From: a virus
Virus record (IMG/VR): IMGVR_UViG_3300020469_000021
Coordinates: 1 to 64,000 of that record
Length of the DNA stretch: 64,000 nucleotides
Strand: one strand, 5' to 3'
The stretch's first letter is position 1; every line of letters begins with the position of its first letter. The notes under the pieces were generated by a model. The model was given only the letters and a program-made list of their open reading frames with translations, did not search any database and was not told where the DNA came from. Below are positions 44,955 to 64,000 of the stretch, one piece after another. A program made the position numbers and the translations under genes.

Positions 44955-47156
44955 ATGGATAATACATCGTTTATACAACTCACAGAACTATGGCAAGACG
45001 GCGGCTTTTCTGAAGTCGGAAATATTATTAACGAAGAAAAGTGGAGCGCTTCTAAGGTCGCAGAATTTTGCGCTTATGTTACAAGGTATCTTGGTACTTC
45101 TCAGCTAAATATACTATATAAATTTTTGTAATGGAAACCGAAACCGAAGTGCTTTATTTAAATTCCGCTCATGAAATTATGGAGGCTAGTTTTGTATCTA
45201 GTCCATTTGAAATGAAGTTGGTTGCGGAAGCAATTTCTGAATTTACAAAGAAGCATTATATAAATAATGAATCATTAGATGATTTTCGCTTAAAGCTTCA
45301 ACAGGCATATCAATCCCACCATAATTTACATGAAAATGATTTCGGCTTCATAGAAGAAGATCGACAAGAGGTGTACGGAGCTTTTTAATCGTGAAAAGAA
45401 AGGAGCAAATAGAATTACTATGGATGACCCATGATTTTTTACTAGAAAAAATATATCCTCTTGAAGAAGAAAACGAAATACTTTATGCAAATATAAAAGA
45501 ATTCCAAAAAGAAGTAAACAATCCCCACAAATTACTAACGGCATTTCTGCAAATAAACAAAGATTTAGATTTGTTTTATGGCAAACAATTAATTTGCTTG
45601 GACGATATAATTCCTTTGCATGAAGAGAATATAGACATTCCGCCAGAAAGAGAAATTGACATCGAGACGCTTTATGCTTTGAGATGTGCTACCATTAATT
45701 TATTAGAAAACCACAGGGTCACAGGCGAAGAAATTAAACAATTAATTGACGATTTAAATGAAAGAAATTGAAAACAGGCGCAAAGAAAGGCATATCCTGC
45801 TTAAACTCGCGGAAGAATTGAGTGAGCTATCGGTAGAAGTTTTGCATTGCGTAAATAAACCAAAGAAAGAAAATTTAAATGAAATCTTTTCAGAAATTAA
45901 AGATGTTGAAAAATGGATTTTAAAATTTAAAGAACTTAAAAATTAATTTAAATAAAAATATTATGATGAATGTTATACAAGTAGAAGATGCAAATAATGA
46001 AAAGTATCATATAAACCCGAAGCAGGTTATGTATGTAAAAGAAAAGGTGAGTGGTAGCTCAATTCTTTATAGAATAGCTCTAGCAAATGGAGAGTCTATT
46101 GTTACAAAAAATTCACATGGAATAGAGCAAATTATACGCTCTATGAAAAAATAATTTCAAAAAATGATTGAGCAAATAAGTGAAGAAATAAACTATCAAA
46201 AAGGCTACGACAAAGGTTGGACAGATGCCCAAGAATATCTTGCTAAAAAATTTGAAAAAAGTATGCTAAAAAATAAAACGGAGTCATACGATAAAGGCTA
46301 TCAAGAAGGTGCGAATCAGAAAGATAACCAACCTTGTCTTTGCGGATTTTGGGGTAATAAAAAATGAAAATATCAATTACTAATTACAATAAAACTTATA
46401 GCGTTGAATCTGATGAAGATGTAGATGCAGAAGGCTTGGCAGATATGTTAAAGGGCTTAATGGTAAGCATGGGCTTTCATCCTAAAAATGTAGACGAATT
46501 ATTTAACACAGAATACGAATGGTTCTCCGAAGAAGAAAATGATTAATTGGATTAAAATTGAAGACGAAATACCCGAAGAGGGGAAGAGACTGCTTTACTT
46601 TTTTGAAGGTACAGGTGTTTGGGTAGGTTTTTATTATGGAAGAGATGAAACTTACCCCGACTCAAATAACCATGTGTTCGGTTGCGAGGCAGGATTCTTA
46701 ACAGGAGATGTCACTCATTACTGCTACATTGATTACCCCGAAGGTGGGGAATGGAGAGTCGAAGCAGATAAAGAATTTTCTAAAGAAGCAAAAAAAGAAA
46801 TGCTAGAAATACAAAAAGAGCAGAATGAAATATTCAATAATTTACTTGGTGATTAAAATATGAAAACATTACATAATACTAAAAATTGCAAATACAGAAA
46901 ATACTTGCATAAAAAATTAAAGCACGGCAAAATAAGTGGTAAGTTTTATAAGTTTCTTTGCAGAAGCTTTCCTTATCGACTTACTGCAAGAGAAGTTGAA
47001 ATTTGTGTCACAATGGTTCTTGATGGCAGAATGAGTGAGAACAAAGCTATCACCACTTTGCAAGGAGCAGAAACTGAACTTAAGAGACAAAGAGAGTTGT
47101 ACAAGTCAAATGTAGAGTGCAGAAAAAAAATAGGGTGGAAACAAATAAATAAATGA
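44955..47156 (+). other. Run of small hypothetical genes, including MazG-like (45758-45946) and DUF551-like (46539-46856)
   Basis: KLAEELSEL..EIKDV; WIKIEDEIP..VTHY; TTGACT at 44865. Confidence 0.55.
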
Positions 47157-47578
47157 AAACAGGAATTACATTTTCAACTTTTGACCTTCTCCATGCGGGT
47201 CATATCTTAATGCTAAAAGAAGCAAAATCTGTCTGCGATTATCTTATTTGTGGTCTTCACATTGACCCGCAGATTGAGCGCCCTCAAAAAAATAAACCTA
47301 TTCAAAGTGTGGTCGAGCGCTATATTCAATTATCTTCAGTAGAATATGTTGATGAAATAATTCCTTATAATTTAGAGATGGATTTAGGCGACATTCTTCT
47401 AGGGTATAATATTGATGTTAGAATTATTGGTGCTGACTACAAGGGCGAAAACTTTTCGGGACTAGGCATTTGTCAAACCAAAGGTATTGAAATTTATTAC
47501 AACGAAAGATCACATAGTTTTTCAAGCTCAGAATTAAGGAGAAGAATCGCCAATGCAGAACAAGAGAGGTTGCAATGA
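47153..47578 (+). CDS. Cytidylyltransferase (TagD-like)
   Basis: TFDLLHAGH, KNKP, ER, VDEI, R.HSFSSS. Confidence 0.88.
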   Translation: MKTGITFSTFDLLHAGHILMLKEAKSVCDYLICGLHIDPQIERPQKNKPIQSVVERYIQLSSVEYVDEIIPYNLEMDLGDILLGYNIDVRIIGADYKGENFSGLGICQTKGIEIYYNERSHSFSSSELRRRIANAEQERLQ

Positions 47579-48189
47579 AATTTTTAGAATGGGCATGGGA
47601 TACTATTTGCGTAATTTGCATACTTTGTTATTGCATTTTTGCTAGTTTTAAATTATTATTTACAAATGATGAATAAATTATTATACAATATGTTAAAAAA
47701 CTCCGCACAAGCGGATATAGATAAAGCGAAATTAAGTCTCCATTTACTTGGAGAAAAAGCAGTTGGCATAGGAGATCATTCGACAGAAGATTTCTACAAC
47801 AATGCCAAGGAAGCTCTATGCTTACTCGATGACGCGCAAGGTAGGCTAGAAGTTTTAAAACAATTTGAAAAACATTAATATGTAGAAAAATTAATTTAAA
47901 TAAATTTATTATGTTTGATAGCGGTGTAGATAATCAGTTTGAAGAAGCTCATCAAAAAGGCTTGCACAGAGGCTTTGATCTAGGTTGGTCTTATAAAGGT
48001 AGATACTACCGACAAATAGTTAGAGATATGCTTAATGACAAAGACTATTTAATAAAGTCGGGAGAAGGAACTCTCAAAAGGCTCTTGAAGAAAATGGAAA
48101 GAGATAAAGACAACAGAGAGAACATTACAATAAATAGTTGGTAAATAGTTCTTGACACCTTCGGCTTCTTGTTATATAGTTGAGAAATT

Positions 48190-62690: not shown

Positions 62691-62729
62691 TTCTTGACAA
62701 GTACGGAAAAACAATCTATTGTTCCCTTT

Positions 62730-64000
62730 ATGAATACATCAGAAGCATTTTTAGCAAGCATACAACAATCAATCGCAAGCGCAGAGAAGATAGCAAATTC
62801 AATTCCCAAGAAGGGTCTTAATGTCTATCTTGACAAGTCAACTATGGTTATGCAAACTTTTAGTGATCCTAGTGCATTTGCTCATGCCAAGAAAGTTACT
62901 GCAAGAGCAGGGCAATCAAGTTGCCTTCGCAATGTGTTAGATGCAGGGGGCAGATTACAATAACGCTTGATAAAAGATGCAAAATAATTGTTTAATTACA
63001 TAAATACTAATTTTTAATTAATAACACAATAAAATGCTTGACATATCATGCAAAATGGACTTGAATAACGACATGGAAGAATTACAAACATACGAAGAAT
63101 ATACAAAAGATATGCCATTAGTAGATCAAATAAAATTTTATTATGATGTTGACCTTAAAGATTTTTTCCCCGATGGATGGATGGTTGACCCTTGGGAAAT
63201 TGTCGCACAAGTTGCAACCAATCCTAATTGGCTAAATGAATTTAACAAAGAGTTTGAAGAAAGTTTAAGAGAAAGGGAATATATAAGATGAATGAATTAA
63301 AAGAAAAGTTAAATAAAAATATTGCTTACCATGTAGAACGAGTAGCTGAAACAGGTTCATCAAGTTTCTCTACTTGCGATTATCGTGGATGGGATAAAGA
63401 TATTTGGAATCATAGACATTCTATCATTGACAAACTAGTCAGCACAGGTTATCGTGTTGAAAGTGCAGTTAATCATGGAGTGCTAGATGTAACAATAACT
63501 GCAAATTTAGAATTATGAAATATGTAAGAAAAGTTTGGAATATCGAACCACAAAAAATGTTAGATTATATCCTTGAGGCAGACAGATCAAATGGTTTGCA
63601 CAAAGAAGGAGATTATAGTCCTGTATTTTATGTTGGAAAAGATTTAGATTATATTCGTGAAGTTTATGAAGATTACAATGGTCTTGATAGTCTTACCGAA
63701 GCAGAGCAAATAGAGAACGAATATTACAGATTGGAGATAGCATAATGGAATATACATCAGAAAATATCGACCAAGTTGCAGAGGAAATTGTCAACAATAT
63801 GTCGCTAGAAGAATTAAAGGCTTTTGTATATGACGAAATTTATGGTGAAATGTTTGAAGATGAAGAGGTTTTTCAACTTAATTTAAAAAAAATATAATTA
63901 TGGAATATACAGATGATAATATGCAATTAGTTGCAGAAAAAGTTGTTTTAAATATGTCTTTAGCAGACTTGCAAGCGTATGTATGCGAGGATTATTTCTT
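62730..64000 (+). other. Small hypothetical genes, ending in two tandem paralogs (63745-63897, 63900->64000)
   Basis: MEYTSENIDQVAEEIVNNMSLEEL vs MEYTDDNMQLVAEKVVLNMSLADL. Confidence 0.6.

Follow-up and report, generated by a model that had tools for sequence, protein, structure and literature searches.

The window that we analysed is a 64,000-nucleotide stretch of viral DNA. It belongs to a longer contig, itself a fragment (104,956 bp, or ~105 kb; ~79% complete) of the genome of a ~200-kb marine phage. On the right side of the window lies an array of small genes (Table 1) that continues beyond its end. The content of the array is of early type (rIIA and rIIB, a ligase, a kinase/phosphatase pair and UvdE), which agrees with the initial annotation, where a desert of restriction-type motifs was said to coincide with an early-gene array. 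The phosphatase and its kinase-like neighbor (48,190 to 49,091) resemble a split polynucleotide kinase/phosphatase. Most genes of the phage (176 of 207) lie on one strand. Five genomes were compared in full: the studied contig (G000) and its relatives G001, G003, G004, and G005.

Table 1. Features of the window, with positions counted from its first nucleotide.
Feature	Position	Strand	Evidence
Tiered left margin of the desert	40,180-45,643		Word positions
tRNA-Thr (TGT), between accessory-gene island and early array	44,590-44,665	+	
Possible sigma-70-type promoter before the first array gene: TTGACT as -35, AT-rich -10-like hexamer	44,866-44,900	+	Inferred by eye
First small array gene	44,955-45,131	+	Orthologue at 66% identity stands at the start of the desert in relative G005
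Restriction-word desert, window part	45,644-64,000	all block genes +	Word counts, codon-preserving expectation
Cytidylyltransferase-like protein	47,153-47,578	+	PF01467, E = 1.5e-13
Phosphatase and adjacent P-loop kinase-like ATPase	48,190-48,708 and 48,708-49,091	+	phrog_335 3.5e-31, phrog_2071 4.5e-31, phrog_505 5.5e-05
RuvB-like AAA+ ATPase with winged helix	49,635-50,588	+	
Conserved acidic 130-aa protein, pI 4.1, anti-restriction candidate	50,585-50,977	+	
ATP-dependent DNA ligase	52,210-53,403	+	PF01068, 6e-20
UvdE-type UV-damage endonuclease	55,324-56,319	+	PF03851, 8e-35
SprT-like metalloprotease-domain protein	60,920-61,438	+	PF10263, 1.5e-16
77-aa protein, no family match	62,730-62,963	+	90-95% identical in G001, G005, and G004; 65% in G003

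What sets the array apart is what its DNA lacks. CCAG/CTGG, CCGG, CCTGA/TCAGG, ACGT, and GGCC had all been reported missing to the right of 45,643, where the last CCAG lies, and a recount of 45,650-64,000 gives 0 for each; the left 45.6 kb holds 195, 33, 53, 32, and 45 copies, respectively. The 18-kb desert claimed to the window end is real and in fact larger. In the whole contig the block without these words starts at 45,644 and ends at ~73,137, a length of 27.5 kb (~13% of the ~200-kb genome) that takes it 9 kb past the end of the window. Words with no copy in the block include GCNGC and ACNGT in addition to those recounted, and between 49,787 and 73,137 none of 23 tested words is present, against 10-39 per kb in the flanks. 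The CCAG gap reaches 73,912, and GGAGG at 73,138 is the earliest purged word to reappear on the right. By the largest-gap test p is ~4e-37 for CCAG, and in the studied contig 29 independent minimal words have their longest gap across the block. Some 35 short restriction-type words are wholly lost from this ~27-kb stretch of early genes.

The expected counts come from codon-preserving simulation, in which the proteins are fixed and codon usage is taken either from the flanks or from the block itself. With flank usage the block should hold 84 copies of CCAG/CTGG, 45 of ACGT, 27 of CCTGA, 22 of GGCC, and 12 of CCGG (hence 12-84 per word); with its own usage the figures are 62, 39, 22, 14, and 9. 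The observed count is 0 throughout. Depletion of the purged words across the whole genome is not seen: in the flanks they stand at 0.8-1.05 of expectation, except for CCWGG and in part ACGT and GGWCC, and the remaining ~175 kb carries hundreds of them at neutral frequency. CCWGG is avoided genome-wide (0 vs 38 expected in the flanks). GC content is 0.33 in the block and 0.36 outside, and codon usage is otherwise alike within and outside it. The boundary is a step, as the initial annotation had it, and not a gradient explained by GC.

The two edges of the block differ in character. On the left the purge is tiered over ~40-50 kb. The 4-bp palindromes end first (last CCGG at 40,179, ACGT at 41,138, GGCC at 43,133), then the 5-mers at 44,649-45,001 and finally CCAG, with a few second-tier words leaking as far as 49,786. 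Near rIIB, at the downstream side of the block, the purge is at its strictest, and it becomes weaker upstream. The sharp right edge sits just downstream of rIIB, at the conserved promoter of the next operon, one that codes for a sigma-like protein. This border is a ~80-nt intergenic promoter with three copies of a promoter-like motif, and in the four genomes that we aligned no more than tens of bases separate the edge from this conserved promoter and its leader. The promoter type changes here. Sigma-70-like promoters are dense in the block and do not stop at its right edge; they go on for ~10 kb in DNA that is not purged, so the presence of early promoters is not enough to define the block. 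A repeat scan of the right border found no repeat-rich, non-coding injection-stop region of the T5 type, and the GC-skew profile has no informative switch. A search with PF00940 (single-subunit RNA polymerase) gave no match; the control genomes were silent too.

One syntenic desert of ~20-30 kb is present in each of eight genomes, the studied contig and seven relatives, among which the rIIA protein is 43-91% identical. The 77-aa protein of Table 1 is far better conserved than rIIA, for which identity is just 46% in both G005 and G004. A second desert in G004 (146.5-164 kb) proved to be a 17.5-kb simple repeat and was set aside; sequence complexity of the block, measured in G004 only, is normal. 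Megablast of 25 kb against isolated phages found no match. We also drew on 24 public runs, as assembled contigs from which bridging and word depth were read. The right edge is spanned by contigs of four of these runs, which come from at least two studies. In runs X1 and X2 depth rises from ~15 to 22 about 700 nt to the right of the edge. Along with this step there are loose ends from other strains, unmatched by any of the five compared genomes; we attribute it to a mixture of strains and rest no argument on it. Skipping joints have just 21-23 nt on one side and were disregarded.

The list of missing words, pooled over 128 kb of desert, is enzyme-like and selective, and many of its members are classic Type II palindromes. 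Purged are GGCC, CCGG, GCNGC, ACNGT, GGNCC, CCNGG, GGWCC, and CTRYAG, together with many 6-bp palindromes (AGATCT, GATATC, TCTAGA, GWGCWC, CAGCTG, and CCATGG among them). Kept are GATC, TCGA, CATG, GANTC, GTNAC, TGNCA, and the AT-only palindromes. ACNGT, for example, has 0 copies for 191 expected, whereas TGNCA stands at 1.43 and GANTC at 0.94 times expectation. Asymmetric words are missing in both orientations, which argues for recognition on double-stranded DNA; an RNA-level cause (RNases, toxins) is out, since nearly all genes lie on one strand. To our knowledge no characterized enzyme recognizes the asymmetric 4-bp word CCAG. Loss of GGAGG is not a change in translation signals, because Shine-Dalgarno sequences are rare throughout the genome. 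Part of the list varies by lineage. ACGT is purged in three of the five genomes and GCGC in one, and which of CCGG and CCWGG is avoided genome-wide, and which in the desert only, changes from genome to genome. The core is largely common to relatives in which identity of rIIA is no higher than 43-47%. The missing words are restriction-type, as had been proposed, but the further proposal that they list the host's defence specificities needs modifying; because distant relatives share so much of it, the list looks like what a clade of hosts would have as its pooled repertoire, with additions specific to lineages, and not like the list of one host.

The purge has left its imprint on codons and on proteins. 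Proline before Asp or Glu is encoded by CCC at 29 of 29 places in the block and at 23 of 109 in the flanks, and serine before glycine is AGT, TCG, or AGC only. The forced codon choice described earlier is therefore genuine, and all 11 positions quoted for it read CCCGA or TCGGG. The effect goes beyond synonymous choice. Across ~34,000 desert codons in the five genomes there is not one Ala-Ala, Thr-Val, or Gly-Pro, and Pro-Gly occurs twice. Selection at the level of DNA is strong enough to ban four dipeptides (Pro-Gly nearly so) from more than 60 proteins. In the literature that we searched we found no earlier report of restriction pressure banning dipeptides. Restriction pressure on a sub-genomic segment can, it seems, override protein sequence.

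Do the genes of the block protect the phage? The initial annotation put forward its small acidic genes as candidates. The acidity is borne out, with pI below 5 in 53% of small block proteins and 26% elsewhere; a link to known anti-restriction families or folds is not. Among the ~35 block proteins searched against Pfam and PHROGs there is no homologue of Ocr, ArdA, or KlcA/ArdB. Close homologues of the acidic 130-aa protein number more than 200, all of them metagenomic and unannotated, and the AlphaFold2 model of the protein (pLDDT 77) found no match in the PDB by Foldseek at E <= 0.001.

We favor an explanation in which the block is a first-exposed early module for host takeover and repair, purged by selection of the targets of dsDNA restriction-type nucleases. 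This is probably correct, in our judgment, and polar, time-limited exposure would be its simplest mechanism. The interpretation given in the initial annotation is supported in part, with staged injection as its hypothetical element. Because ~175 kb carries the purged words at neutral frequency, the rest of the genome must be safe whenever it is accessible, and the block is not. Restriction would be the selective agent. The block would reach the cytoplasm ahead of other phage DNA, where host RNA polymerase would transcribe it, starting from the numerous promoters of sigma-70 type there. Restriction may then be neutralized by one or more products of the block before the remaining genome enters or becomes accessible, so that a function encoded in the block would protect all that follows. 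As for the order of entry, we infer that the rIIB side goes first: the edge there is fixed and sharp and the purge weakens toward the other side. This edge would then be the leading end, which is packaged last and ejected first.

The ends of the genome are a separate matter. No physical end was found, and IMG/VR describes every one of the phage contigs as linear and free of end repeats; both points count against first exposure. So does the behavior of the assemblies, in which contigs read across the right edge, break points differ among relatives, and word depth in the desert (assembled contigs of four public runs) lies below that of the right flank instead of being double. This depth gives no sign of the block lying in a terminal repeat. 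One 214-kb contig is cut within the desert, as would be expected from a circular or permuted map. In the large terminase subunit, identity to isolates (proteins of Bacillus and Clostridium phages) does not exceed 27%, a similarity too distant for the packaging mode to be inferred from it. Also counting against first exposure are the sigma-70-like promoters beyond the edge and a word list common to distant relatives, unlike the restriction set of a single host. The same goes for the lack of Ocr-like or ArdA-like proteins and of T5 A1, A2, or dmp homologues, of which there are none in the five genomes (tblastn E > 0.8; no match with phmmer).

The logic of the purge is best read as that of first-step transfer in T5 and of the early-injected region in T7-like phages. 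T5-like phages are restricted solely via sites in their first-step-transfer DNA, and in T5, BF23, and other Tequintavirus genomes an early block of small genes is site-free while targets are tolerated elsewhere (PMC10644984). In T5, as here, promoters for host RNA polymerase drive the block, and if the rIIB side leads, genes are transcribed toward the leading end, like the T5 genes dmp, A1, and A2 at the left end of that genome. The differences are considerable. The block here is 27-30 kb (~13% of ~200 kb) compared with ~9 kb (8%) in T5, and the purge is deeper, with GC-containing 6-bp palindromes at 0.26 of expectation as opposed to 0.69 in T5 first-step-transfer DNA. Three 4-bp palindromes and CCAG are missing here and dipeptides are excluded; the T5 segment misses no 4-bp palindrome. 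Our phage is without A1, A2, and dmp, a repeat-rich stop region, or a sign of a long terminal repeat, and its lineage, judged by the terminase, is unrelated.

In Autographiviridae, too, restriction acts solely via sites in the early-injected region; the demonstration comes from Marinomonas murciaviruses, in which only motifs in the first-entering region count (PMC12455610). T7-like phages also share with ours the co-orientation of nearly all genes and a change to another class of promoter where the early region ends. They differ in that the purge here is strongest promoter-distal, near rIIB, the reverse of what upstream-driven entry would give; in that we found no Ocr; and in that a single Type I motif is at issue in the published case, against ~35 short words in ours. 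Conjugative plasmids have in their leading region a further parallel, but this is a tailed phage (large terminase subunit, tail fiber) with dsDNA entry and without relaxase or oriT. Genome-wide restriction avoidance in phages shares the selection against Type II palindromes, which CCWGG exemplifies here, but avoidance of the ~35 other words is confined to 13% of the genome with step-like edges.

Of the other explanations, the one that survives best, though we think it unlikely, has the whole genome entering at once with all but the block shielded, whether by virion-borne DNA-bound proteins, a modification that spares the block, or a rapid compartment. The block would be site-free because it must stay bare for host RNA polymerase. 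The assembled contigs, with no terminus, terminal repeat, or stop signal found and break points that resemble a circular map, suit this idea, as does a right edge that coincides with a change of promoter type and hence a boundary of transcription classes. The shield is its difficulty. There are no DNA-modification genes among the annotated proteins, and self-methylation does not protect the flanks, because four of the five genomes have no C5 or N6/N4 DNA methyltransferase (Dam-type PF02086 lay outside this search). The un-purged DNA to the right of the edge has sigma-70-like promoters as well. We know of no virion DNA that is modified or coated with protein in one region only.

Less probable still, and in our estimate improbable, is that the purged words are targets of phage-encoded or phage-activated nucleases that destroy host DNA early. 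The block, in the cell at that stage, would escape them because it has none of their sites, and the rest of the genome would arrive or replicate after they are shut off. T5 does degrade host DNA during first-step transfer (PMC10644984), and a core list common to relatives at 43-47% rIIA identity is explained more easily by a conserved phage specificity than by fast-evolving host systems. Against this, ~35 motifs need many nucleases, and the ~35 block proteins searched include no restriction-type nuclease; variation of the list by lineage, some words being avoided genome-wide in one and only within the block in another, is better matched by host repertoires that change; and staged exposure would still be required. 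Artefact or history (chimeric assembly, a recent foreign segment, composition, low complexity) we count as already refuted, and with it the misassembly and foreign origin named at the outset among the ways to undo the finding: eight independent assemblies share the syntenic block, four runs bridge its right edge, GC and codon usage match the flanks, and the words fall 12-84 copies short of the codon-preserving expectation.

To return to first exposure, a broader claim can be built on it, which we offer tentatively and rate at rather less than an even chance. A widespread clade of ~200-kb marine phages may have independently evolved polar, time-limited delivery, in which the last-packaged 27-30 kb, with its end just past rIIB, works unprotected in the cell. 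The purge list would then be the pooled restriction repertoire, CCAG included, of an uncultured host clade, probably Verrucomicrobiota. The ~60 conserved small proteins of the block, many of them acidic, are candidates for broad anti-restriction or host-takeover functions. Statistics of restriction avoidance should be computed regionally and not merely genome-wide. If the claim is true, sequence alone would reveal which DNA, and how much of it, enters first in abundant uncultured marine phages, and the purge list would be a testable catalogue of the restriction specificities circulating in their hosts.

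The contig carries a stretch of early genes, from 45,644 to about 73,137, in which restriction-type words have been erased. From 45,650 to the end of the window CCAG/CTGG, CCGG, CCTGA, ACGT and GGCC each occur 0 times, against 195, 33, 53, 32 and 45 to the left, much as the initial annotation had it. The window covers the first 64 kb of one contig of 104,956 bp. The CCAG gap spans 45,643 to 73,912 of the contig, and the gaps of other words are similar. A longest-gap test on every 4–6-mer returned 100 words whose longest gap spans 50–70 kb, reducible to 29 minimal words; for CCAG, p ~4e-37. 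A set of 23 purged words, found at 10–39 per kb in the flanks, is missing altogether from 49,787 to 73,137. GC content hardly differs, at 0.33 inside the block and 0.36 outside.

Protein sequence does not account for this. Simulated recoding of the 61 block proteins, with amino-acid sequences unchanged and codons drawn at flank frequencies, predicts 84 CCAG, 45 ACGT, 27 CCTGA, 22 GGCC, 19 ACAGC, 17 CCGTC, 16 ACGCC, 15 CACTG, 13 ACAGT and 12 CCGG; none is seen. With the block's own codon usage as null, 62, 39, 22 and 14 copies of CCAG, ACGT, CCTGA and GGCC are still expected. The claim thus holds under the codon-preserving control that the initial annotation had proposed (12–84 expected per word, 0 seen), and so does its description of forced codons: all 29 prolines that precede Asp or Glu are encoded by CCC, a codon used at 23 of 109 such positions in the flanks, and serines ahead of Gly draw on AGT, TCG and AGC alone. 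CCCGA/TCGGG, the compensating word, is over-represented, with 42 copies where 10 are expected. In other respects codon usage does not differ between block and flanks, a point against foreign origin. In the flanks, the purged words stand at 0.8–1.05 of codon-shuffle expectation, with ACGT and GGWCC halved under the same null, and CCWGG (CCAGG/CCTGG) is the sole word absent throughout the 105-kb contig (38 expected in flank genes, 0 seen). Because flank words sit near expectation and block words at zero, avoidance goes from nil to complete in a step. The desert is real, strongly non-random and conserved.

The avoidance reaches the proteins themselves. Ala-Ala forces GCNGC, Thr-Val ACNGT, Gly-Pro GGNCC and Pro-Gly CCNGG, and these are the block's four most depleted dipeptides: across 7,682 codons each occurs 0 times, where 18, 17, 10 and 10 are expected. 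The deserts of four related genomes fetched in full (G001, G003, G004 and G005) also lack all four, save two Pro-Gly, while in the flanks all are at normal level. DNA-word avoidance has thus constrained more than 60 protein sequences, rIIA and rIIB included. Our literature search found no report of such dipeptide exclusion.

With rIIA as query we obtained 21 IMG/VR contigs (43–91% identity), most with the same purge around the gene. Seven relatives were examined, the four in full and relevant parts of three more, and each has a single desert in the syntenic early module. For most words the free zone is 27–33 kb (five genomes measured), and many small block genes keep their order at 40–95% identity. 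The left edge, which coincides with no conserved gene, fades across 10–15 kb in four relatives and is tiered in our phage. An apparent second desert in G004 (146.5–164 kb, L049-L050) is a trivial 17.5-kb simple repeat, whose low complexity makes it look like one; a strand of it can be read as a (Thr-Glu/Gln)n protein of 2,201 aa. Contig break points vary among relatives. Ten of the 21 related contigs (IMG/VR loci L005-L021) break off no more than 5 kb to one side or the other of rIIA, which is above chance and could reflect high local strain diversity or something physical.

Words in 128 kb of desert pooled from five genomes
Word	Observed	Expected
CCAG	5	620
GGCC	0	106
CCGG	0	43
GCNGC	0	202
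ACNGT	0	191
GGNCC	0	80
CCNGG	2	81
CCTGA	2	164
CTRYAG	3	134
AGATCT	0	46
GATATC	0	38
TCTAGA	1	46

Also at or near zero in the pool are CASTG, GGWCC, GWGCWC, CAGCTG, CCATGG, GAGCTC, AGTACT, ACATGT, AAGCTT and TTCGAA. Kept are GATC, TCGA, CATG, CTAG, GTAC, TGCA, all AT-only palindromes, and GANTC, GTNAC, CANTG and TGNCA (0.94, 0.89, 1.07 and 1.43 of expectation). ACGT is purged in our phage (G000), G001 and G005 and retained in G004 and G003; GCGC is purged in G005 only. CCGG is missing genome-wide in G005, G004 and G003 and from the desert alone in G000 and G001; CCWGG does the opposite, missing only from the desert in G005, G004 and G003 and genome-wide in G000 and G001. The missing words had been read as a list of the host's defence specificities. 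Many are indeed recognised by textbook Type II enzymes, among them HaeIII, HpaII, Fnu4HI, Tsp4CI, Sau96I, ScrFI, SfcI, BglII, EcoRV and XbaI. For CCAG, a 4-bp word, no enzyme is known to us. A broad common core with lineage-specific additions sits better with a repertoire pooled across hosts than with the list of a single host.

Features of the contig (L001 numbering starts at contig 64 kb)
Feature	Position	Remark
Tail-fibre-like protein	0.2-3.4 kb	
tmRNA, phage-borne	13988-14425	Rfam, 110 bits
PSCyt2/PSD1 gene	14,437-16,479	directly after tmRNA
DUF1501 gene	16,491-17,762	after PSCyt2/PSD1 gene
Split pair resembling polynucleotide kinase/phosphatase	48190-49091	adjoins ligase
ATP-dependent DNA ligase	52210-53403	in block
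77-aa protein	62730-62963	
rIIA	67,071-69,413	inside block
rIIB	69,586-70,764	inside block
Gene before right edge	72,462-73,070	
Edge promoter, GGAGG leader and operon	73,089-73,746 (L001:9089-9746)	66-aa basic, 60-aa and 71-aa proteins
~700-nt non-coding RNA	73,755-74,480 (L001:9755-10480)	just outside desert
manA RNA motif	74,064-74,273	Rfam RF01745, 76 bits
TTGACA-N17-GAGAAT promoter series	75,990-83,380	un-purged DNA
Large terminase subunit	95.0-96.9 kb	

The element is a tailed phage, with a large terminase subunit, a tail-fibre-like protein and rIIA/rIIB. CheckV puts the contig at ~79% complete; complete relatives are 194–214 kb, with large terminase subunits 64–70% identical. Accessory genes in the left 45 kb include glycosyltransferases, the tmRNA and the PSCyt2/PSD1 and DUF1501 pair. 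The nearest matches to the DUF1501 protein are from Verrucomicrobiota (46–52% identity, against 31–37% for those of Planctomycetota), which may hint at the host. The block encodes cytidylyltransferase-like, RuvB-like ATPase, UvdE and SprT-like proteins alongside the ligase and rIIA/rIIB. Its adjoining phosphatase and kinase-like ATPase, with the ligase, recall the T4 tRNA/nick repair genes that counter anticodon nucleases. Some 50 small ORFs lie there, 53% with pI <5 against 26% elsewhere. The 77-aa protein, with no family match, is 90–95% identical in three relatives, in two of which rIIA is only 46% identical, and 65% in G003; conservation this extreme may reflect a host target that is itself conserved. 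Predicted sigma-70-like promoters on the + strand concentrate at 50–85 kb.

In G000, G001, G005 and G004 the right edge directly follows the same orthologous gene, at a promoter and GGAGG leader that are conserved along with the three-gene operon behind them; the operon's 71-aa third protein matches sigma-70 region 3 (E = 6.5e-08). The promoter-like motif TTGAC[AT]-N12-CTGTCAG has only three copies in the contig (72,487, 73,089 and 74,491). The non-coding RNA, which contains the manA motif, has its own predicted TTGACA-17-TATGAT promoter and strong terminator. Further right, each TTGACA-N17-GAGAAT promoter has an ATG 6–7 nt after it, implying putative leaderless mRNAs for small gene cassettes. 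Assembled contigs of four public runs (X1-X4) bridge the edge. Over contig 64–84 kb (L001:1-20000) their word depth is 15 in the desert and 22 in the right flank in X1 and X2, and ~5 and 8 in X4. The rise lies near contig 73.8 kb, where other strains' contigs join, and is probably strain mixture; nothing in the depth points to a terminal repeat.

What could drive such a purge? The flanks carry CCAG at ~3.7 per kb, so any responsible enzyme with access would shred them; they must thus be shielded at any time when they can be reached, and the block is not. Self-methylation of the flanks is unlikely, because four of the five genomes have no C5 or N6/N4 methyltransferase of the families searched. 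The best explanation, in which we have moderate confidence, is an early module that is exposed before the rest of the genome and has been cleared of restriction targets. The fixed sharp edge near rIIB and the purge weakening towards the other side suggest that the rIIB side may lead; in that case transcription of the block would run towards the end that enters first, the arrangement of dmp, A1 and A2 in T5. In phages generally, the last-packaged DNA is ejected first; packaging would start upstream of the terminase region, which fits a rIIB-side lead.

We found no homologue of T5 A1, A2 or dmp, no T5-like stop-signal region and, among the block proteins searched, no known anti-restriction family or fold. 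T5 first-step-transfer DNA retains every 4-bp palindrome, and GC-containing hexamer palindromes stand there at 0.69 of expectation, against 0.26 in G000, where 40 of 56 palindrome types are missing from 27 kb. First-exposed DNA that establishes protection is known in T5-like phages (PMC10644984) and Autographiviridae (PMC12455610). On the simplest account the block would likewise be exposed first and then set up protection, following the same logic as T5 in a larger and much more extreme form, in an unrelated lineage.
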